A DNA stretch of 64,000 bases from Haliotis rufescens (taxonomy: Eukaryota), in NCBI RefSeq assembly GCF_023055435.1, contig NW_025963857.1, positions 2,418,001 to 2,482,000 of the forward strand, read 5' to 3'. The notes below the pieces were generated by a model. The model searched no databases and was not told the DNA's origin. It saw only the letters and a program-made list of their open reading frames with translations. Both the position numbers and the translations under genes were made by a program. Shown one piece after another: positions 1,600 through 48,292 of this stretch (its first letter is position 1; every line of letters begins with the position of its first letter).

Positions 1600-3068
1600 C
1601 ACTCTTCAAAAAAGGAAACGGACAGGTAGTATGTAGTTCATTAAACCTAACTGCCCCAAAAATCAGGTATATTAATTGGATATATGTTATTGGAAAATGT
1701 CGTTGGCCTGATATTCGACAAACGGTACGTGAAAACGCAGCCATTGTCGATTGTCTTAAACGGCATTATTTCCACACTTGTCCAAAAATGTCATGGAGGA
1801 AAACAGTAAAGCAAAATAAACGTGCAAGTTATAATTATGGCATTCGTAACTCGTGGTAGTGGCAAAAACAAGGCAAGCATAAGCCAATAATTTGTCATTC
1901 AATTGTCAACAAGTTCGAAAATGCTGAGACTCAGAGCTGCCGATCGGAACATCGCCATAGGAGGTATTCAAAGAGGGAAATAGCAATCTTCTGTTGCACG
2001 CCACTTCAACGTCCACCACAGCACCATTTGCCGCCTTTGGGACCGATACACACAGTTCAATTCCAATGCAGACGGTCCGAAAACAGGTCGACCAAGAGTT
2101 ACCACCCCTGCACAGGATCGCTACATTCGACTGTTCCACCTACTCGATCGCAATGTCACAGCGACGGAGACTGCAGGACGCATCCCTGGTTTGAGGAGGA
2201 TATCGGACCAGACTGTCAGGAACCATCTTCGCGAGGCTGGAATCCGACCCAGAAGACCAGTTATCGTCCCTGGTTTGCAACTGATCCATCGACAGCGACG
2301 TTTGCGTTGGTGCAATCCCTTACAGCCTTGGTATTTGAGAAACTGGAGACGGGTGTGGTTTAGCGATGAATTACGATTTCTTCTTCACCGGCGAGATAGA
2401 AGACAGCGTGTTTATCGTCGTCGAAATGAGCATTTTGTTGCATACATTGTACATGAATTCGGTGGCGTTAGTGTTATTGGTTGTGGTTCAGGGAAATTTG
2501 ACAGCAAATCGCTACATGAATCAAATTCTTCAACCTCACCTTCTTCCAATCATTGACCGCCATAGGGAGCTGTTTCAACAGGACAACGCTCCACTGCACA
2601 CAGTTCGTGTCACGGTATATTACCTTCATAATGTCAACATCAACGACTTGCCCTGGCCGTCGAGATTTCCAGATCTCAACCAAATCGAACACCTCTGGGA
2701 TAAACTCGATCGACGTGTACTTCAACGTCAGAACACGCCGCAGACAATCTCACAACTGGCCAACGCGTTACAAGCAGAATGGCAGAATTCCGCAGGACAG
2801 AATTCGTACACTTATCCAGTCAGTGCCGAGGAGATGCAGAGCCGTGATTGCTGCCCTGGGCGGTCACACGTGATACTGAGTTCAGCGCGGCCTTCTGGCC
2901 TTGTGTGACAATGAACAGTATTCAATACCTTTGTACAACGATAACATGTGACTATCGAGCTCCAAAATTTCATATTTGTATCTATGATATTGAAATTAAA
3001 TATATCGAATTTATTAGGTAAAATAAATTAACTAAAAATCTACCTGTGCGTTACATTTTTGGAGAGTG
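1600..3068 (+). mobile_element. Full-length Tc1/mariner DNA transposon (defective)
   Basis: Left TIR CACTCTTCAAAAAAGGAAACGGACAGGTAG (1600-1629) and right TIR CTACCTGTGCGTTACATTTTTGGAGAGTG (3040-3068). TA flanks both ends (1598-1599, 3069-3070). A transposase remnant lies inside. Confidence 0.92.
1921..2878 (+). pseudogene. Tc1-type DD34E-family transposase pseudogene with stops and frameshifts
   Basis: Pieces across frames: MLRLRAADRNIAIG, ISDQTVRNHLREAGIRPRRP, WRRVWFSDELRF, FQQDNAPLH, LPWPSRFPDLNQIEHLW, IRTLIQSVPRRCRAVIAALGGHT. Confidence 0.9.
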
Positions 3069-3169
3069 TATATTGAGTATATTATTAAAAGAAAACTCGC
3101 AGGAACAAACGGCGGGGAAGCAAACAAACAGGTATAAGGGTAAAGACAACCAAATACACGGACAGGCAG

Positions 3170-5990
3170 ATCGAGCATACCAAACACAAGGACTGCAGAC
3201 GGGCACACCAAACACAAGGACAGCGGGTCGGCACACCAAACACAAGGACAGCAGATGGGCACACCAAACACAAGGACAGCAGATGGGCACACCAAACACA
3301 AAGACTGCAGACGGGCACACCAAACACAAGGACAGCGGGTGGGCACACCACATACAAGGACAGAGGAAGGGCACATCAAACACAAGGACAGCAGATGGGC
3401 ACACCAAACACAAGTACAGCAGATGGGCACACCAAACACAAGGACAGCGGATGGGCACACCAAACACAAGGACAGCGGGCGGGCACTCCACATACAAGGA
3501 CAGAGGAAGGGCACATCAAACAAAAAGACAGCAGATGGGACACCAAACACAAGTACAGCAGATGGGCACATCAAACACAAGGACAGCGGATGGGCACACC
3601 AAACACAAGGACAGCGGGTGGGCACACCACATACAAGGACAGAGGAAGGGCACATCAAACACAAGGACAGCAGATGGGCAAACAAAACACAAGAACAGCA
3701 GATGGGCACACCACATACAAGGACAGAGGTCGGGCACAACACATACATGGACAGAGGGCGGGTGGACACACCCAATATAAGGACAGCGGGCGGGCACAAC
3801 ACATACAATGACAGCGGGTGGACACACCCAATACAAAGACAGCAGACGGGTACACCACATACAAGGACAGCAGACGTGCACACAACATACAAGGACAGAG
3901 GGCGGGCAGACACCAAATACAAGGACAGGAGGCTGAAACACCAAATACAAGGACAGCGGGCGGGCACACCACATATATGGACGGACACTCCAAATACAAG
4001 GCCAGCGGGGCACACCTAATACAATCTCGGGCACACCACATACATGGATCAGAAGGCGGGCGGACACACCAAATACAAGGACAACGAGCTGGAGGGCGGG
4101 CACACCACATACAAGGACAGCGGGCGGGCACACTCAAACACAGGGACAGGGGACAGGCACACCAAACACAAGGACAGGGTACAGGCACACCAAACACAAG
4201 GCCAGCGGGGCACACCAAATACAATATCGGGCACACCACATACATGGATCAGAAGGCGGGCGGGCACACCACATATACGGACAGCGGGCGGGCACACCAC
4301 ATACAAAGACAGCGGACGGACACACCAAACATGAGGATGGCAGACCACATACAAGGACGGGAACACCAAACACAAAGACAGCGGACGGACACACCAAACA
4401 TGAGGATGGCAGACAGGCACACCACATACAAGGACAGGGGACAGGTACACCAAACACAGGGACAGGGGACAGGCAGACCACATACAAGGACAGCGGGCGG
4501 GCACACCAAACACAGGGACAGGGAACAGGCACACCAAACACAGGGACAGGGGACAGGCACACCAAACACAGGGACAGGGGACAGGTACACCAAACACAAG
4601 GACAGGGGGCAGGCACACCAAACACAGGGACAGGGGACAGGCACACCAAACACAGGGACAGGGGACAGGCACACCACATACAAGGACAGGGGGCAGGCAC
4701 ACCACATACAAGGACAGGGGACAGGTACACCAAACACAGGGACAGGGGACAGGCAGACCACATACAAGGACAGCGGGCGGGCACACCAAACACAGGGACA
4801 GGGGACAGGCACACCAAACACAAGGACAGGGGACAGGCACACCACATACAAGGACAGCGGGCGGGCACACCAAACACAGGGACAGGGGACAGGCACACCA
4901 AACACAGGGACAGCGGGCGGGCACACCAAACACAGGGACAGAGGACAGGCACACCAAACACAGGGACAGGGGACAGGCACACCAAACACAGGGACAGGGG
5001 ACAGGTACACCAAACACAAGGACAGGGGGCAGGCACACCAAACACAGGGACAGGGGACAGGCACACCAAACACAAGGACAGGGGACAGGCACACCACATA
5101 CAAGGGCAGCGGGCGGGCACACCACATACAAGGACAGGGGACAGGTACACCAAACACAAGGACAGGGGGCAGGCACACCAAACACAGGGACAGGGGACAG
5201 ACACACCAAACACAGGGACAGGGGACAGGCACACCAAACACAAGGACAGGGGGCAGGCACACCACATACAAGGACAGGGGACAGGTACACCAAACACAGG
5301 GACAGGGGACAGGCACACCAAACACAAGGACAGGGGACAGGTACACCAAACACAAGGACAGGGGACAGGCACACCACATACAAGGACAGCGGGCGGGCAC
5401 ACCAAACACAGGGACAGGGGACAGGCACACCAAACACAGGGACAGGGGACAGGCACACCAAACACAGAGACAGGGGACAGGCACACCACATACAAGGGAC
5501 AGAGGATTGGCGGGCACACCAAACACAGGGACAGGGGACAGGCAGACCACATACAAGGACAGCGGGCGGGCACACCAAACACAGGGGCAGGGGACAGGCA
5601 CACCAAACACAGGGACAGCGGGCGGGCGCACCAAACACAGGGACAGAGGACAGGCACACCAAACACAGGGACGAGGACAGGCACACCAAACACAGGGACA
5701 GGGGACAGGCACACCACATACAAGGACAGCGGGCGGGCACACCAAACACAGGGACAGGGGACAGGCACACCAAACACAAGGACAGGGGACAGGCACACCA
5801 CATACAAGGACAGCGGGCGGGCACACCAAACACAGGGACAGGGGACAGGCACACCAAACACAGGGACAGGTGACAGGCACACCAAACACAGGGACAGGGG
5901 ACAGGCACACCACATACAAGGGACAGAGGGTGGGCGGGCACACGAATAAAATGGACAGAGGGCGGGCGGACAAATGCAGGACAGCCTGAC
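3170..5990. repeat. Minisatellite, ~28-bp unit (GGCACACCAAACACAGGGACAGGGGACA and variants)
   Basis: Direct tandem copies. ORFs in many frames on both strands show 28-residue periodicity. Confidence 0.95.
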
Positions 5991-6659
5991 AAGGTACGGG
6001 TACACCGACAGGCTAAAATAACGACCGACATGTGTGATAGGCTACAGATACACAGACACAGGAAGGCAGTACCTGACGTAGACTGACAGGCTATATAGAT
6101 ACAGACACACAGAGAGACAGCTAATGACATAGGCACAGACACAGTACAGACACGGAGAGACAGATAATGACATACGCACAGACACAGTACAGACACGGAG
6201 AGACATGGTAAACCCGCACATGTCACAGACACAGCCCGACAAAACATGCAACAGAAGCCAGAAACTTAACCAGCATAAATAAATTGTTTCGTTCCATTTT
6301 CCCCAAGGGTAAAACAATGACGGACAAGCTGAGACAGAAGCAGACAGACACCGGGACATAAAATTATAATACCTAAACAATCACCTTGACAAACAGAGAC
6401 GGACACATAACCTTTGAAACACAAATCGGTTGCATATTCTTTAGGGAATGTTCATTAACAATTATTGATACGTTGCTGCACGCTTATGAACCCAGGCAAA
6501 CTCTAACCAGACTGTCAGAAGAGCGGACAGGCCATGCTTTGGTACAGCACACATAAACAGTTGAATATAAAGAAATACACGGACTCACCTCAGGTCAGAC
6601 AGGCTCTACACCGCGCGACTAGTCACACACATCCTACTACTAGTCATACATATGTAGAC

Positions 6660-8717: not shown

Positions 8718-8868
8718 TCTAGTGGTTAAAGCTTTCGCTCGTCACGCCGAAGACCCGGGTTCGATTCCCGACATGGGTACAATGTGTGAAGCCTATTTCT
8801 GGTGTCCCCCGCCGTGTTATTGCTGGAATATTGCTAAAAGCGGCGTAAAATCAAACTCACTCACTCAC
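8718..8868 (+). mobile_element. SINE family A, slightly 5'-truncated
   Basis: B box GGTTCGATTCC, GTC anticodon-like loop, (CACT)n tail, 14-bp TSD TCTARATAAAGTGG at 8704-8717 and 8869-8882. Confidence 0.9.
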
Positions 8869-10381
8869 TCTAAATAAAGTGGGGTTTTTCGTCACCCCGA
8901 AAACCCGGTTGTGATTTCCTAAACACGTGTAGCCCATGATCATGTTCGAACTAATAGTCGGAATATTAAAACCCTTCACTGACTCCCTCATAATAAAGTC
9001 ATGATATTATTTTCAACGCGTGAAACACACAAGCATAATATTACAGTGAACATTAGATATTGATATATTAGCATTCAGGTCGTTGGTCTATACAAACATT
9101 GATCGCTACTTCACTCTAAATATAAAAAAAATCACCCATTCCTTACTTCCACAATAATTTCCGCTTGGTATAAACCCACATAACAAATGTTCAGAGGAAT
9201 ATATTATCTAAATGTAACAACAGTTAATTGGAAGCTGTTGGCTTGGACAATGAGAAAGGCCTACGCTGTCTCACGGCGAGAGTATATCTTGAGCTGGCAC
9301 TGACAGCCGGGCAGGTTGCGCGAAGACCATCAGCGACTGCCACTGTATCCATGCCTCGGTTTCAGTAGCATCGTGCCCAACCTACAGGCAGCAGTGGTGT
9401 GCCGTATTGATCGGGGAAGGTATGTGCGGCCGCTCCAACTCTCTACTCACAACGCTGGAATACTCACTGCGGCTAGCAGCATTCCTCACCAGCTGATCAC
9501 CAACTGGCAAAGGCATTACTTGTGAGGGGATGTATACGCTATAAGCTATTAGCTGCTTAAAACGTGCAATTGGAGCAGTTGGGGTACCATCAGAACTTAT
9601 TTCTACATGAGGAGTTATAACAAGGAAGACGTCTTTGGTGATCAAAGTGAAGACAACTTGTGAGAGATTTTCTACTGATTAATTTAATGTTTGTTTACAC
9701 TGGCGTGAGGAGATATGCTAGCTGTGAGGAGGCGGCTCATACGGAGAAAACAGACAGTGTCCTGTGCTTGGCCAAGCTGTGAATAGACAACATTGATATA
9801 TATATTTGACATTTGGCAGATAAGCCTTTCGTTGAGCTTAGTTCCAGCAAAGGGACTATTCTATTAGGTTTTACAGCCCAACGTCCAGACAATATAAACG
9901 CCTTCTGTTACCAGCGGGAGCCTGTCATCAAAAGTGTTTATGCCATATGCTTTTGCGATAACCTCTGATCAGGTGTGGTGATTGCGTCAAATTTCAGACT
10001 TAAATATCCACCCGCTGTCTTCCTGTTTGGAATCAGTGTTTACGAACATGACACACTGGAGGTGAGAAGCGTCGAGAGTGTTTTCAAATGCATAACGCTT
10101 GCACAACACGTGGAATTCGAGACGTCTTAAAGGGATTTAAGCAATTAAGGAATATCATTTTCCGTGTATAAAGCAAGGGCGAGTATTATCTAACTGTTCT
10201 CCAGCGGGAGTGCAGGAGAGTAATGCTGCTGGAATCATCCAAACCGGCCCGTCCGCCTAAACCTTCACAGTATGACGGGTGTATAGATTTCAGCGAATAC
10301 CTTGTAATTGGATTTAAAGAAGTGTCTCCGTGATGAATGTGGGTGAGGCGATGTAATTGGATTAACCATCTCTGCTTATAA

Positions 10382-11842
10382 ATGGTAGCTCGAGTGCCCA
10401 GTTGTTGCATGGACGTGACGACTAGAGCAGCAATGGTAAATGAGACAGACACGCACCTGTTCAATGCTGAACACTCAAAACCTGTGTGGAGCTTCTACGT
10501 CATCTGGGGACTCTCCATTCCGATGGTGTCAGTGACGTTCATGACGTTGATGGCCAACGGAACCGTTCTGTTGATGTTCATCTTAACGCGAGTGTTGCGA
10601 AAGTGTAAAAATATATACATTGCTAGCCTTGCTATGGCGGATTTTTTAATCGGGTGCACCATGTCAATCGCGATGCTTCAAGATCTGAATCCAAACTGGG
10701 CCCTTGTGGGCTGCGCTTGTAAACTGAGTCTTACTTTTCGCCATTCCTTATTGTACGTATCCCTACTTAGTATTCTCCTTATCAGCATTGATCGATGGTG
10801 GTCCATCCACTACCCATTCTCCTACCGAGTTCGACAAAGCCGGAGGCTGGCTCTTGGTATTGTCTGCCTGTGCTGGTTCCTCAGCCTGGCGTTACACATT
10901 CCACCCATAGTGCTCTGGGAACTTATAGCAGACATTGAACCAAATTCAACATCTTCAGCGTCATATATTTGTGATGTACCTTACAGGAGAGACTTTGCTT
11001 TTACACTCACTGCCTCGGCTGTTGAATACCTGTTCCCATTAATGGTGTTGTGGGGACTTAACTGTAGCATTTATTTTAAAATCAGCAGGCGGAAAAGTAT
11101 GAAAATCCGACGATCTCTTAGTGCATCAGACACATTCATTCTCACATATCGAAAATCTTCATCTGAATCTGACTGTACTACTAACCCATCTGACGAAAGT
11201 GCAGATCTGTTTCCTAACAGTTTCTCTCGACTTGATATTAGACGCACGTCACTAATCATGAACTCGACCAGGCGTCACAGCCTTGCAAACTACCTGACAC
11301 CTCCCAGAGCATCATCTGCACCCGCTCAGTACTCGAGGATGAGCGTAAAACGACGTGTGTCCTTCGACACCCTGATGGGTCAGACAGCCTACAGACCCAG
11401 TGCCATCAGGAAATCCTCCATGTGTGGAACCGGACTAAGGAGTAGCTCCATCATCAGGAAGCAGAGTGACGACCTTGTGAGGGACCTTCTCGTGAAACAG
11501 GACAAAAAAGCGGCATGTTCCTTGGGCATGTTGGTGCTTGTGTTCACGTTGTGCTGGACCCCCTATATGGTGAGCAGTGTTGTATATGCCAAGTGCGATA
11601 CGTGTCTAGCGTCCTGGGTTCGAACAGTTGCATTTTGGGTGCTCATGGCCAACTCGGCTATCAACCCTTTCTTATACGGACTTCTTAATGCAGAGTTCAG
11701 GAAGGTGCTCAGACAATGGTTTTTCTGCCCTAAAACGAGGAAGTACAGGCTGAAAGAAGCTTTGCTATACTGGAACCTTCAGCAAGGCATGGACTCGGAT
11801 GGTGTTCGCGACAATGGATTCTTTCCAGCGGTGCGAGAATAG
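10382..11842 (+). CDS. Intronless class A GPCR, biogenic-amine-receptor-like (histamine H3/muscarinic-like), orphan
   Basis: 486-aa ORF with 7 hydrophobic segments: TM1 ANGTV, TM2 SLAMADFLIG, TM3 C...SIDRW, TM5 EYLFP, long Ser/Arg-rich ICL3, TM6 DKKAACSLG..FTLCWTPY, TM7 NSAINPFLY, helix 8 NAEFRK, and an N-terminal sequon NET. The true start could be a downstream Met. Confidence 0.95.
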   Translation: MVARVPSCCMDVTTRAAMVNETDTHLFNAEHSKPVWSFYVIWGLSIPMVSVTFMTLMANGTVLLMFILTRVLRKCKNIYIASLAMADFLIGCTMSIAMLQDLNPNWALVGCACKLSLTFRHSLLYVSLLSILLISIDRWWSIHYPFSYRVRQSRRLALGIVCLCWFLSLALHIPPIVLWELIADIEPNSTSSASYICDVPYRRDFAFTLTASAVEYLFPLMVLWGLNCSIYFKISRRKSMKIRRSLSASDTFILTYRKSSSESDCTTNPSDESADLFPNSFSRLDIRRTSLIMNSTRRHSLANYLTPPRASSAPAQYSRMSVKRRVSFDTLMGQTAYRPSAIRKSSMCGTGLRSSSIIRKQSDDLVRDLLVKQDKKAACSLGMLVLVFTLCWTPYMVSSVVYAKCDTCLASWVRTVAFWVLMANSAINPFLYGLLNAEFRKVLRQWFFCPKTRKYRLKEALLYWNLQQGMDSDGVRDNGFFPAVRE

Positions 11843-12835
11843 TGCAACCAAAGACATGGCCTGAATGCTGTGACGTGTATGGAAGGTTGACTATATGTAT
11901 TCCAAAGAGAACAAATTTGTTATTTAATAATGCTTACCTGGTGATAAACTGTGATTAACGATGTCTCAAGTATGTATCACCTTTGTCATGATGTCCCGGA
12001 CTGTGATCCGTAGATCCCACGTGATTCTTGTTCTACACCAATCATCTGTACATGTTGTGAGCTTACAACACTGCCACAGCAAACTCCTTACACGTCATGT
12101 GTGTGTTTTATAGGTGTACAATGGTGACACTCGCAATGTATTTTTACATGGGAACGCTATTCCGGTGATACGGTGATGGCACTGCATATCTCACTGGTAT
12201 ACACTGTGGTCCAGAGACTCTCTATTGTGATAGCTGTTTCACCAGTACTGGTTTGTATGTCTTTCACTATACATGAGTAAATCTCTAATCATGGTATATA
12301 TATTAATGAATACATATATATATATATGAATGAAGCTCATAGTTGTCAAAATTTTGTACGTTTTATTTTTCGAATTGACGTTGTCTATTTGTTATACATT
12401 TGCAGTAATATTACAGTAAGATGTATATTATGCTAATTGTTATTCATATAAAAGAAAGTGCCACTGACTGCCGCTGTTCCGTCGTTATTTATTTCCACAC
12501 TTAACACGTTAATGTGAATTCCACTCTTTTTCACTTTGTTATCGTTAATTCATACAACTCAAGCTATTCGAGTCGGATGTTATCGTTATACACCGAAGCT
12601 GACCCATCTGTCTTAAAAAGCGCTAAATGTAAATAGAACACTGTACACTATCGTTGCTGAATCTGTTTTAAACGAGAGCGTTTAAAGAACAGGTCGTGTT
12701 TGTTGAAGCTGTTATCGTCAAATACGTCATCTCTTCATTTAAAATACCTTGTCTCAGACTATCATTGCAATATGTTGTTAGTCTTTAAAAAAGGTTAAGC
12801 ACCATCTCTGCTTTAATTGCTTATATACAATCACC

Positions 12836-13063
12836 TTGAACATCCGGGTTCTAATTGGTCTTCAGCAACCCATGCTTGTCGTAGTCAACAACAGGGTCGG
12901 GTGGTCAGGCTCGCTGACTTGGTTGATGCATGTCATCGTATCCCAGTTGCTTAGATTCGTGCTAATGATACGTCAATCACGGGATTGTTTGGTTCAGACC
13001 AAGTTATTAACGGACCCCCGTCATATAGCTGGAATAGTGCTCAGTGCGGCGTTAACAAACAAC
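12836..13063 (+). mobile_element. SINE-like family C copy (diverged)
   Basis: GGTCTTCAGCAACCCATGCTTGTCGTA...GGGTGGTCAGGCTCGCTGACTTGGTTGA...ATATAGCTGGAATAGTGCTCAGTGCGGCGTTAAC. Confidence 0.8.
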
Positions 13064-13884: not shown

Positions 13885-14709
13885 CTTAATCTGTTTCCTA
13901 AAATTAATGAACATTTCTAGAAATGGTTTGAGCACATCGTCAATCATGTAAATATTGCAACCCACTTTCCATTATCATAAGAAAATCTGGTAAAATCCTT
14001 GTTCGAATCCGACTACTTGAACCTGCACTCTTCAAATCTTCAACGCTTTGAGAAATGTTTTTCGAAATATAACAACTAGATTGGTCTTGGAATGTATACA
14101 TAAAAGCCACAAAACTTAATTGCATCATCATAAGAAATCTAAAAAGCAGAGTCCATCCGACTATATCACAAGCATCTGTGGCAAAGTGAGGCTAACACTG
14201 GGGAGGTATGTGATTGACTATAAGACTTCGCTGTGAAGACAATGGATGGATTTATCTCTGCTCTACTCTGTCATGTGAACACATTAACACCATAATTGCA
14301 TGCAACGAAGACAATTGGTTAACAATCGTTACAAGATGCAACATTAACCCGGAAAGGACTTATGTTTCCGTGCATGACATTATTAGAATGTATACAATGA
14401 AAGCTCGTTGTGTTGAGACCTCGTTAATGCGGAGGCATTAAAACCGGCATTAGTCAGGACTGAGCAAAAGGAGCCGCACACCCTGTGCTCTATAAAAGTG
14501 AAAAAATCTTTAACGCGACGTTAAACCCCATTTCAGCTCACCTCACTTATTGGTAGCGCTCAGCCGAGGAATGGACCTCTGTCCAGTCAGGTTCATCGGT
14601 GTCATTTCCATTTTGGTTTAGTATGCAAGAAATAATTACCCTACTTCCCCAATTATTAATTCCACTGGATCTGGATTGTTAAGAGAGCACTGAGACGTTT
14701 ATGATCAAG

Positions 14710-15287
14710 TACTATGGTACCACTACTACTACCACCACTACTACTATTACAACTACCACTACTACTACTGATACTGCTGCTACAACCACTACTACTACTG
14801 CCACTGCCGCTACTACTACCACTACCACTACTACAACAACCACCACTACTACTACTACTACTACTACTGCCGCTACAACCACTACCACTACTGCTACAAC
14901 CGCTACTACTACTACAACTACCACTGCTACTACTGCTTCTGCTACAACCNNNNNNNNNNNNNNNNNNNNNNNNNNNNNNNNNNNNNNNNNNNNNNNNNNN
15001 NNNNNNNNNNNNNNNNNNNNNNNNNNNNNNNNNNNNNNNNNNNNNNNNNNNNNNNNNNNNNNNNNNNNNNNNNNNNNNNNNNNNNNNNNNNNNNNNNNNN
15101 NNNNNNNNNNNNNNNNNNNNNNNNNNNNNNNNNNATCTGTCACTGCCACTACTACTACTACTACTACTACCACCATTACTACTACAACTACCACTGCTAC
15201 TACAACTACTGCTACAACCACTACTACAACTGTCACTTCTTCTTCTACTACTACTACTACTACTACTTCTACTACTACTACTGCTGC

Positions 15288-15318
<31 letters not shown>

Positions 15319-15528
15319 ACTGCTGCTGCTACAACCACTACTACTACTGTCACTTCTACTACTTCTACTACTACTACTACTACTACTACTACCACTACTA
15401 CCACTACAACTACTACTGCTACAACCACTACTATTTCTGTCACTACTACTACTAGTACAACTACTACCACTACTACAACTACCACTACTACTACTGCTGC
15501 TACAACCACTACTACATCTGTCACTGCG

Positions 15529-15563
<35 letters not shown>

Positions 15564-15850
15564 CACACCTACCACTGCTACAACAACTACTGCTAAAACC
15601 ACTAATACTGCCACTACTACAACTACCACTACTACTACTGCTGCTATAACCACTACTACTACTGCCACTGCTACTATTACTACCACTACCACTACTACAG
15701 CTATCACCCACTACTACTAACACTGCCGCTACAACCAGTACTACTACTGCTACAACCGCTACTACTACTACAAATACCACTACTACTGCTGCTTCTGCAA
15801 CAACAACTACTACTACTGCCACTTCTACTACTACTACTACTACCACTATC
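14710..15850. repeat. (ACT/ACC/GCT)n trinucleotide microsatellite containing an assembly gap (N, 14950-15134)
   Basis: Direct inspection. Confidence 0.97.
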
Positions 15851-16336
15851 ATTACTGATGAAAAACAACTATAACGCAGTATTCCTATACTTCTCCGAGA
15901 ATAACTCACAAATCCAAATCAGATGCTTGCAACACACGGTACTACACCCTTTCCGTGGTATTTCGACATCATAGGCCCACAGCTGAATCTGCTTATGTAT
16001 ATGCGTTGTGAATTGCGTCAGAATAAAGCCATCAAATGCAATGCATGATGGTGAGGATGAAACGTTTGTCGCTGTTGTGAATAGCTCTGCAAACAACAAC
16101 CTTTAAATAATCAAACCCTGAACCATACGAAAAGAGAAATCATTTGCTAAATGTGATAAAGTTTATTTTATATTTTATCAATTTTATGTATTAAAAAGCG
16201 ACAAAAACTTTTCATAATCATAAAATAATACACGTTTAATCATATCAGTCGTAGATACATATTCATGGACACTTGCTTTGCATTTCCAATGGTGTTTACA
16301 TATTTCCCAGGCTAACATATATGTTTTATACAATCA

Positions 16337-45545: not shown

Positions 45546-46914
45546 AAACACCATACTTTGTGTATTCTATTTAGTCTCACGTTCTTGATGTTCAAAGAAG
45601 GTAATTAAATGTTAAAAGAGTATAACTTTGTTTGTTAGGATTATAGGTCCCCAGCAACCAACTGAATGAGTCGGTGGTGAGGCTCGGTGACCAGGTTGAT
45701 TGCATGTCATCGTTTTGAACGTTGCTCATAATATCAATGATTGGTTGGTCTGATTCTGTAACAGGACACCGTCATATAGGAGGAATGTTGCTGAGTGTGG
45801 CGTTAAACAACAAACAGACTGAAAAAATACTGATTAAACATGAAAATATCTTCATGAAAACACCACAAATGTTGCTGTTTTTTTCAAATGCGTTCTTCTC
45901 CCATGCTATGCAATGTGTAACAGTAGAAAATCATTTTTATATTTTAGTCAAAAGTTTCTGTCTTCAAGACAATGTATTTTAATAAACTACAATATGTCAA
46001 AATATCACAATATCGCAATATGATTGTAATAGCATGATACCTTTTGCCTTTGTGGGCATGTTAAACACTGACTAACACATGGTGCAATCTGAGCTCCTGT
46101 TCTTATGTTCTATCTGCCCCGAGTCAGCACTTTATCACGTACAAACATATTAGCGCCTTTCGTTTCTTTAGGTAAATATGCTAGGATTAAATGGAATTAA
46201 AGGTAAATATCCCCAGAAATGTTTAATATATGATAACACAGCATGTACGAGTACAACACCTCACAAACTGACTGCAACTTCACTCTGATATGTCGTGAGG
46301 TATTTTTGAACCATTTATCAGAATGTTTTGAAATACAGACGCATGTAAATGGCCGATCTTGCTTTTTAAAACGCTTTGATAATAGATGTACTGAAAAAAG
46401 GGTTTTCCTCATTATGAATTAAATAATAATATGCCACAAACTTATATCAGAAAGGCTTTGGGTAGCCACAGAGTTCGTGGCAATTCTAAATGCACAATAA
46501 TTGTCATAAACGTTTGTCAACAAGTACTAACATTTAACTTACTTTGGAATGCCGCGTCCATTGTATCGAACCCCCGACATCCAGGCAGTCGCTAAACAAA
46601 CAACAACATGGAGGCAGTCGTGCTGGTCAACAGCAAATTAAATCGGCAAATAGCAACAACAAAAATAGTTTCTGCAAATACGTAGCTCAATCGTCTTAGA
46701 ATGAAAACATAACCAACAAACATAATAAAAATATGCAAAAATCAACATTATACCACATCTTTTTTTACGTTTCTATATATAATATAAAATAAAAATATTT
46801 TGACATGACGTATTGATACTGAATCTGGGGTATATATATATATAGTTTTTGTGATGTCACGGTTTCTGTCATGACATTTTAGAATTGGCACAAGGATTTA
46901 ACCTCATGATAATC

Positions 46915-47640
46915 ACTCTTCACGCAATAAAACTCTTCACTTCCGCTGTCATCAAACAGTTGTCATCACTTCCGCTGTCATCAAACGGTGCTCATCACTT
47001 CCACTGTCATCAAACAGTTCTCATCACTTCCACTATCATCAAACAGTTCTCATCACTACCACTGACATCAAACAGTTTTCATCACTTCCACTGTCATCAA
47101 ACAGTTCTCATCACTTCCACTGTCATCAAACAGTTCTCATCACTACCACTGTCATCAAACCGTTTTCATCACTTCCACTGTCATCAAACAGTTCTCATCA
47201 CTTCCACTGTCATCGAACAGTTCTCATCACTTCCACTGTCATCAAACAGTTCTCATCACTTCCACTGTCATCAAACAGTTCTCATCACTTCCACTGTCAT
47301 CAAACAGTTCTCATCACTTCCACTGTCATCAAACAGTTCTCATCACTTCCACTGTCATCAAACAGTTCTCATCACTTCCGCTGTCATCAAACAGTTCTCA
47401 TCACTTCCACTGTCATCAAACAGTTCTCACCACTACCACTGTCATCAAACAGTTTTCATCACTTCCATAGTCATCAAACAGTTCTCATCACTTCCACTGT
47501 CATCAAACAGTTCTCATCACTTCCATTGTCATCAAACAGTTCTCCTCACTTCCATTGTCATCAAACAGTTCTCAGCACTTCCATTGTCATCAAACAGTTC
47601 TCAGCACTTCCACTGTCATCAAACAGTTTTCATCCCTAAC
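46915..47640. repeat. 29-bp minisatellite, ~25 copies (CACTTCCACTGTCATCAAACAGTTCTCAT)
   Basis: Tandem units; the ORF shows 29-residue periodicity. Confidence 0.95.
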
Positions 47641-48292
47641 GCTGTCACCAGCAGTGCTGTTTGTATAAATATCTTCTTTCTCGTTACATGATCAATTCAC
47701 CGATATGAAATGACTCAGGGAACCACGGAACTGTTCTGTTTACCTGTTGTTGTTTTGTGCTGCTTTCTCGATTCCAGTTTACCAGTTTCAGATTATGATA
47801 AATATAGGACACAGTTGGAACTCAACACTAATATCTACTCAGCAGTATACTTGTACACACAGGCAGTCTGACTACCTAAAGACCCACATTGACTTTGACA
47901 TTTGACATTACATAGACATACATATTACAAATATTTCAAGTGCTCGTTTGATGACCTATTTCAGTTATCACCAAAAGTTTTTTAAATATATCTGGGACAT
48001 TGATGTGGCCTTGTATGTTTGGTATATTGACGGAAAGGGGCACCGCCCCACAACGTCAATACAATGTCAACACAATTCTATGTAGAGTTCCTATTACTTC
48101 TAAAAGCTCATACAACTTGCACTACACACATCATTGTCTTATTCAGGTTAACAGGAAGCGGTTGATATTTCCCATATTGAAAAACACGAGTTGTTAATTC
48201 TGTTTATCATGTCCAGTGTTCCCCATTTAAAAATAAACCGAAATTGTTCAAAATTTTACCGAACATTCAGCGTGTAGATACACTTATTTCTT

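Follow-up and report, generated by a model that had tools for sequence, protein, structure and literature searches.

The stretch analyzed here, a window of 64,000 nucleotides, holds a single long ORF that is not repetitive, and this ORF encodes a class A G-protein-coupled receptor (GPCR). The ORF is free of stops and frameshifts, and its description as intact with all activation motifs in the initial annotation is borne out by D87 (2.50), DRW, CWTP, and NPFLY. Membership in class A is indicated by a Pfam 7tm_1 match over seven helices (E = 5e-45; 154 bits, with a cut-off of 30.5) and by the x.50 anchors N59, D87, R138, W165, P219, P394, and P429; a comparison with the ESM Atlas likewise returned class A labels only. 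The predicted model contains seven transmembrane (TM) helices and helix 8 (pTM 0.62), with the third loop predicted to be disordered (pLDDT below 50 for residues 245 to 357). Residue numbering was anchored on D137-R138-W139. Counting from Cys3.25 and DRW reproduced the previously claimed positions of Arg3.32 (R120), His3.33 (H121), Trp7.40 (W419), and Met7.43 (M422), and TM3 aligns to that of the human histamine H3 receptor (H3R) without a gap, placing R120 opposite the Asp of VVDY. The features of the gene, in window coordinates, are as follows.

10382..11842, + strand: class A GPCR gene (P0001), 486 amino acids, intronless (ORF and Pfam 7tm_1)
10640..10684, + strand: TM2, Asp2.50 through Gln100/Asp101, with one residue fewer than H3R (alignment)
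10718..10720, + strand: Cys3.25 (C113), codon TGT, invariant in 24 of 24 rows
10739..10741, + strand: Arg3.32 (R120), codon CGC, the charge-reversed pocket residue, invariant in 24 of 24 rows of alignment A2
10790..10798, + strand: DRW motif (3.49 to 3.51), a clade marker (alignment rows)
10895..10897, + strand: His4.57, which is Tyr in H3/H4-like receptors (alignment rows)
11024..11026, + strand: Glu5.46 (E215), the amine anchor of H3R and H4R, retained (alignment; role from the H3R papers)
11060..11062, + strand: Asn5.58, common to H3/H4-like receptors (alignment rows)
11102..11131, + strand: KIRRSLSASD, a motif resembling basophilic kinase sites at the start of intracellular loop 3 (conservation)
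11351..11365, + strand: RRVSF (residues 324 to 328), a putative PP1-docking (RVxF)-like motif in loop 3 (pattern and pLDDT)
11552..11563, + strand: CWTP (CWxP) of TM6, residues 391 to 394 (alignment)
11633..11677, + strand: TM7 with Phe7.39, Trp7.40, Leu7.42, Met7.43, and NPFLY (residues 428 to 432) (alignment)

The surroundings of the gene are repetitive. Thirty other ORFs were scanned, and one exceeded the Pfam cut-off, a DDE_3 (Tc1-like) transposase fragment at 2366-2908. High-copy short interspersed repeats with very high summed contig depth in four runs flank the gene (8719-8870 and 12837-13060), and tandem repeats and trinucleotide microsatellites yield long spurious ORFs at 3000-6250, 14650-15920, and 46850-47690. 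Rfam gave no match within the 64,000-nucleotide window. Contigs from the four runs, which are presumed to be RNA and lack a DNA control, cover approximately 9400-12400 and not the adjoining bins, a pattern that does not amount to evidence of expression.

The receptor is single copy in its own genome, where the next match among the best-scoring candidates has 24% identity (E = 1.8e-23). It is 95% identical to a Haliotis asinina protein and differs by two residues from one of Haliotis cracherodii, which identifies the window as abalone DNA. Two departures from familiar motifs are seen in its helices. Position 5.58 is Asn rather than Tyr, which is no defect, since Asn5.58 is common to H3/H4-like receptors. 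The TM2 Pro2.58 of the family is Ser (10664-10666); H. cracherodii also has Ser, H. asinina and Haliotis rubra have Pro, and no contig from the four runs that covers this codon shows another letter.

The Arg at 3.32 could, on one reading, be a product of missequencing, a private mutation, or a sign that a histamine or muscarinic receptor copy is decaying. In favor of such decay are the Ser that takes the place of the TM2 Pro, the Pro itself being found in most orthologs, and the inconsistent database names of those orthologs (H3-like, M5-like, tyramine, 5-HT1A-like). Codon 120, however, is covered by contigs from all four runs, which come from three studies, with zero alternative letters, and the ORF differences among run contigs are synonymous in eight of nine cases, the ninth being E21D. 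Orthologs carry Arg as well, contrary to what a private mutation or an error would predict. Arg3.32 occurs in three further named Haliotis proteins, and among 31 homologs initially collected, 27 cover TM3, of which 26 have Arg and one, a partial Pomacea paralog, has Gln. A profile search of 1.84 billion representatives enlarged the mollusc clade to 53 rows, a count that includes fragments and near-copies and rows assigned to molluscs by tree position only. Residue 3.32 is covered by 48 of these rows and is Arg in 43, Lys in two, Leu in two, and Gln in one; it is Asp in 37 of 38 H3/H4-like rows and in all 93 rows of other amine receptors. The carriers of Arg3.32 span four mollusc classes: among gastropods, abalones, limpets, Gigantopelta, caenogastropods, Aplysia, Physella, and Elysia, and elsewhere Octopus, Argonauta, Argopecten, Mytilus, unionid mussels, and the chiton Liolophura. 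Across five DNA copies the residue is written with four codons (CGC, CGT, CGA twice, and AGG). The dN/dS ratio proposed earlier as a check came to 0.049 against the 82%-identical locus L031 (dN 0.121; dS 2.48, which is near saturation, with pS 0.72), indicating purifying selection; dS against the bivalve loci is saturated, and the ratio therefore comes from the L031 pair only. Judged by these sequence comparisons, selection acts on Arg3.32, and the residue is a family-wide trait rather than a peculiarity of this locus. Decay or missequencing is refuted by the orthologs, and we give it a probability close to nil.

The ancestry of the family was examined with FastTree on 187 of 201 rows (14 fragments were dropped) and with IQ-TREE on 71 rows chosen from that set, omitting columns 3.32, 3.51, 5.46, and 7.43. 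The mollusc clade (support 100/98) and five basal rows together form a clade, here called the DRW clade, with support of 100/100. With the trait columns omitted, this clade adjoins the H3/H4-like receptors at 100/99 (99/98 and 99/96 in other trees), muscarinic receptors form the next clade outward, and the amine receptors including the DRW clade are supported at 99/99 in the best tree. The H3/H4-like rows comprise pike and newt H3R, hemichordate, amphioxus, rotifer, and annelid sequences, and six abalone paralogs; their monophyly has a support of 80/15 in the 71-row tree, which does not separate a sister from a nested position of the DRW clade. In AU tests on 31 rows, grouping with muscarinic receptors (p 0.004) and grouping with other amine receptors (p 0.008) were rejected. 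A position beside the peptide-receptor outgroup was not rejected (p 0.135), and the root of the DRW clade, whose stem is long (0.84 to 1.0), is thus not settled. The amine-receptor descent claimed in the initial annotation is supported by the best trees, in which the clade branches among the amine receptors next to H3/H4, although a root on its own stem survives the AU test. In the available text of PMC10244343, HRH1, HRH3, and HRH4 are grouped together with muscarinic receptors.

Marker residues were compared across the same groups. Asp3.32 is missing from every DRW-clade row. Basal members include the annelid Owenia (Glu3.32, Trp7.43) and the nemertean Lineus (Gln3.32), and four further basal rows have Lys, Phe, Ser, and Ser at 3.32. 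Trp3.51, the W of DRW, is found in 47 of 48 mollusc-clade rows and five of five basal rows and lies outside the six commonest residues in the 38 H3/H4-like rows. Asn5.58 occurs in 41 of 45 DRW rows, 37 of 38 H3/H4-like rows, and 8 of 93 other amine rows; Glu5.46 occurs in 22 of 45 DRW rows and 31 of 38 H3/H4-like rows and is outside the four commonest residues in the 93 other amine rows. The sharing of these two residues agrees with the placement of the clade near the H3/H4-like receptors. The Trp that closes TM4 is general (39 of 40 DRW, 36 of 38 H3/H4-like, and 92 of 93 other amine rows).

Several relatives deserve mention in their own right. The abalone genome contains at least six H3/H4-like genes with Asp3.32 and Glu5.46, mostly also with Trp7.43 (L003, L006, L007, L009, L015, and L021), which by sequence are candidates for the true molluscan histamine GPCRs. 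Some of these paralogs are clustered: contig C583 has three in a span of approximately 50 kb, and C24 has two less than 50 kb apart. Four sacoglossan rows (P0066, P0067, P0068, and P0080) form a fast-evolving subclade in which Arg3.32 is followed by Asp or Glu at 3.33 and ERW replaces DRW. Land-snail rows P0055, P0059, and P0054 (Bradybaena clusters) are divergent paralogs that carry Leu3.32 together with Lys5.46 and Trp6.51 or, in one case, Lys3.32.

The meaning of Arg3.32 depends on what its Asp counterpart does in H3R. As reported in the available parts of PMC11437213 and PMC11187927, the amine of histamine pairs with Glu5.46 in H3R, while the imidazole is held by Asp3.32, Trp7.43, and Phe7.39; Ala at E5.46, D3.32, or W7.43 abolishes signaling, and D3.32A alone abolishes the histamine responses of all four human receptors. 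For H4R, the same partial text of PMC11437213 cites a classical pose from another study. The initial annotation had regarded Asp3.32, supported by Tyr/Trp7.43, as the amine site. In the abalone receptor both are indeed gone, replaced by Arg120 and Met422, but in H3R the amine sits elsewhere, on Glu5.46. Because Glu5.46 (E215) is retained in the abalone receptor, it is the imidazole site that has been reversed and not the amine anchor: the triad Asp3.32/Trp7.43/Phe7.39 reads Arg/Met/Phe. Also retained are Ser5.43, Trp6.48, Tyr6.51, Phe7.39, Leu7.42, and the aminergic Trp7.40 (W419), which is invariant in 24 of 24 rows.

Pocket residues were counted in the 36 fully covered rows with Arg3.32; the acid and cation positions discussed below were picked after inspection of the alignment. 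Trp or Tyr at 7.43 is found in none of the 36, and Trp is found there in 36 of 38 H3/H4-like rows. Position 2.60 is small in 32 of 36 and is Tyr in 28 of 38 H3/H4-like rows; in the abalone TM2, Ala lies opposite Tyr2.61 of H3R and Gln/Glu lies opposite Tyr2.64. The two large aromatic neighbors of Asp3.32 have been replaced by smaller residues, as the housing of an Arg would presumably need. TM2 is one residue shorter across the whole DRW clade, with Pro at 2.58 in 32 of 40 mollusc and five of five basal rows and at 2.59 in 25 of 38 H3/H4-like rows. Glu or Gln occupies 2.63 in 31 of 36 Arg rows, Leu or Phe 3.36 in 29, Tyr or Phe 3.37 in 33, and His 4.57 in 26; His4.57 is present in 33 of 49 mollusc-clade rows, and Tyr4.57 in 34 of 38 H3/H4-like rows. 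On its TM6/TM7 side the pocket varies, with 6.51 being Tyr in 15, His in 14, and Phe in 10 of 48 mollusc-clade rows and mixed residues across molluscs also at 6.52, 6.55, 7.35, 7.36, and 7.39. In loop 2, the cysteine C197 and P200 are the same in all 24 rows compared, and the length of the loop ranges from approximately 15 to more than 100 residues among homologs.

We consider it likeliest, with a probability of roughly 45%, that the ligand of the receptor is not histamine but a molecule with a carboxylate or sulfonate group, perhaps a zwitterion (an amino-acid-type metabolite, for example). The first changes are seen in the sequences themselves. In a spiralian lineage, represented by the mollusc, annelid, and nemertean rows, a receptor copy that the best trees put beside H3/H4 lost Asp3.32 and one TM2 residue; molluscs fixed Arg3.32 and also lost the imidazole-site partners Trp7.43 and Tyr2.61. 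The shrunken neighbors would make space for the long Arg side chain and turn the imidazole site into an anion site, which is why the ligand would be expected to carry a carboxylate or sulfonate. Where Glu5.46 is retained, as in abalone, it could hold an amine, which would favor a zwitterion. The near constancy of a basic residue at 3.32 (Arg in 43 of 48 mollusc-clade rows, with Lys in two more) supports the anion site, as do the accompanying changes at 7.43 and 2.60 and the finding that the Arg rows have no one fixed acid partner for the residue. When Arg3.32 is absent, a cation can be found elsewhere, at Lys5.46 in both Leu3.32 rows and, on non-mollusc branches, at Lys/Arg6.55 in five of six rows and Lys6.51 in the sixth, Owenia, these positions having been chosen post hoc. 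Several observations count against the anion site. The outer pocket varies more than a single small, conserved ligand would lead one to expect, whereas the cytoplasmic side has changed little; the amine subpocket may be occupied by Leu/Phe3.36 and Tyr/Phe3.37; and half of the Arg rows lack Glu5.46. This last observation (18 of 36 rows with Glu5.46) also gives no support to a fixed Arg3.32-Glu5.46 bridge or a zwitterion site common to the whole family.

The retained Glu5.46 raises the alternative that the receptor still senses an amine, in a nonclassical manner, through that residue, as teleost clade III trace amine-associated receptors (TAARs) do through Asp5.42. H3R itself anchors its amine on Glu5.46, and the abalone receptor keeps this residue along with Tyr6.51, Phe7.39, Leu7.42, and Trp6.48; there is precedent for amine-derived receptors that lost Asp3.32 in the clade III TAARs and, with Asn3.32, in the schistosome SmGPRs, according to the available portions of PMC4695389 and PMC3289605, respectively. 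We nevertheless judge this very improbable: an Arg one pocket-width away would be expected to repel the cation, Arg persists in the 18 of 36 rows that lack Glu5.46, the D3.32A effect in the four human receptors speaks against it, and the genome already has its six Asp3.32 H3/H4-like genes.

The Glu or Gln at 2.63, which could neutralize Arg3.32 and so weighs against an anion site, recalls the Asp2.61-Lys3.32 pair of the gonadotropin-releasing hormone (GnRH) receptor. A peptide, or another larger and partly neutral ligand, might then be recognized through an Arg3.32-Glu2.63 network convergent with that receptor. The variable outer pocket would fit a coevolving peptide, and an AKH/corazonin-type receptor (P0040) likewise has Arg3.32. 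Pro2.58, too, is characteristic of numerous receptors for peptides, chemokines, and metabolites. A precedent is GnRH1R, where the Lys3.32-Asp2.61 pair is essential to agonist action in what is available of PMC7576152. The best trees, however, put the clade with the H3/H4-like receptors and apart from P0040, the N terminus is short, and in the model no shared peptide-binding hairpin is predicted for a loop 2 of approximately 15 to more than 100 residues. A peptide ligand therefore seems improbable.

The cytoplasmic face of the family is well conserved. Near-invariant motifs are DRWWS, P..YR, RRSxS after TM5, and QDxKA before TM6, and R243, R244, S245, and S247 of KIRRSLSASD are kept in 92% to 98% of 48 rows; with regard to Gi/o coupling, Arg34.54 (R149) is kept, and 6.29 is Gln, not Arg, in the abalone receptor. 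That these motifs stay while outer TM6/TM7 drifts is what would be expected if Arg3.32 were a built-in mimic of a ligand, paired with an acid of the receptor itself, so that signaling would be independent of ligand and controlled by phosphorylation of loop 3. Candidate acid partners are a Glu at the top of TM2, Glu5.46, and Asp7.36. An acid is present at 2.63/2.64 in 28 of 36 Arg rows, at 5.46 in 18, and at 7.36 in the five rows with neither, so that every one of the 36 has at least one. Basal activity of H3R is high, which also fits. The place of the acid differs by lineage, which means that there is no single conserved bridge, and the invariance of C197 and P200 of loop 2, together with retention of the pocket-facing His4.57 and Tyr/Phe3.37, speaks against a built-in ligand. 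We regard this alternative as unlikely, though it merits serious weight beside the preferred reading of an acid-bearing ligand.

Under that preferred reading, the receptor would signal through Gi/o, a coupling presumed from ancestry alone, and phosphorylation of the conserved loop 3 motifs would modulate its activity, with PP1 docking at RRVSF adding to this control in some lineages. This motif lies in the middle of the third loop, which is otherwise divergent, and matches the PP1-docking RVxF consensus. It is a conserved match in a disordered, cytoplasmic segment and a candidate site for PP1 binding. A strict pattern, [KR][KR]V[ST]F, defined after alignment A3 had been viewed, was found in 6 of 43 mollusc rows (three abalone-like, Patella, and two chiton; 0.05 expected from shuffles) and in five of five basal rows (0.01 expected); it was also found in Lineus, and in none of the 38 H3/H4-like or 93 other amine loops (0 of 131). 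A loose pattern adds two octopods (RHVSF) and is common by chance, occurring in 17 of 93 other amine rows with 11.4 expected. Bivalves and most other gastropods have only RRxS-type sites at this place. The motif occupies one and the same alignment position in abalone, limpet, chiton, octopod (as RHVSF), annelid, and nemertean sequences; it looks ancestral to the clade and lost in several lineages. Somatostatin receptors have no such PP1 motif in the available text of PMC3956607.

The family is apparently undescribed. Literature searches, in which subscription journals were mostly uncovered, found no description of the clade, its accessions, or amine receptors with Arg3.32, and among amine-receptor offshoots without Asp3.32 they found none with a fixed Arg. 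Members are already present in databases under other names. The receptor resembles a class A small-molecule receptor descended from the H3/H4 group, but without Asp3.32 and the aminergic residue at 7.43, a histamine, muscarinic, or tyramine label does not suit it; mollusc genes labeled HRH3, M5-like, tyramine, or 5-HT1A-like include this family, whose members should not be counted as such amine receptors. Mytilus edulis records label a family member HRH3, and the three HSR3 genes of Mytilus galloprovincialis given in the available text of a preprint (10.64898/2026.08.17.745212) may include a mussel member.

In amine receptors, no pocket residue is more constant than Asp3.32; known offshoots neutralize it, while the mollusc family reverses it and has retained the reversal in chitons, gastropods, bivalves, and cephalopods. 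With Asp, Glu, Gln, Lys, and Arg at 3.32, the clade and its relatives offer a natural series for the change of GPCR ligand class, and the family could reveal an unknown molluscan signal. A wider proposal, possible if on the whole doubtful, is that a phylum-wide family derived from histamine receptors flipped the charge of its pocket and so came to sense a transmitter or metabolite that is acidic or zwitterionic, with a PP1-docking switch of its own in loop 3. As tentative examples, that ligand might be a GABA-, taurine-, or beta-alanine-type molecule or an acidic derivative of histamine. If true, an amino-acid-type signal would have a metabotropic receptor of class A in molluscs.

Comparison with known systems begins with H3R (PDB 8yuu and 7f61), which is the best sequence match among solved structures (E = 1.5e-35), ahead of muscarinic M5 and M1, and the top Foldseek match. 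Its VIA-align score (Z 29.9, rmsd 2.6, 285 residues aligned) ties for the top with that of M5 (Z 30.0, rmsd 2.4, 280 aligned). Adjoining the H3/H4 receptors in trees, the abalone receptor has in common with them Glu5.46, Asn5.58, Tyr6.51, Phe7.39, Trp7.40, and Leu7.42. It differs in having Arg for Asp3.32, Met for Trp7.43, His for Tyr3.33 and Tyr4.57, Leu and Tyr for Cys3.36 and Thr3.37, a shorter TM2, DRW for DRF/Y, and RRVSF in loop 3. The orthologs usually appear in databases as muscarinic receptors, which are characterized by Asp3.32, the hallmark Asn6.52, and a Tyr lid. The abalone receptor has P..YR in loop 2 in common with M5 but lacks Asp3.32, Tyr7.43, Tyr5.58, and Asn6.52, having Arg120, Met396, His3.33, and Phe7.39 where the muscarinic features would be. 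The clade III TAARs (PMC4695389) and SmGPRs (PMC3289605) are, in the available text of both reports, likewise whole amine-derived clades without Asp3.32, which changed to neutral residues, and they still bind amines where tested; the abalone family instead has the opposite charge at this position, fixed throughout a phylum, and its gene is mostly present in one or a few copies. The GnRH receptor and the AKH/corazonin-type P0040 likewise combine a basic 3.32 with an acid in outer TM2. They are unrelated by the best trees, and in the abalone family the acid stands one turn higher, with Gln followed by Asp in the abalone receptor itself.
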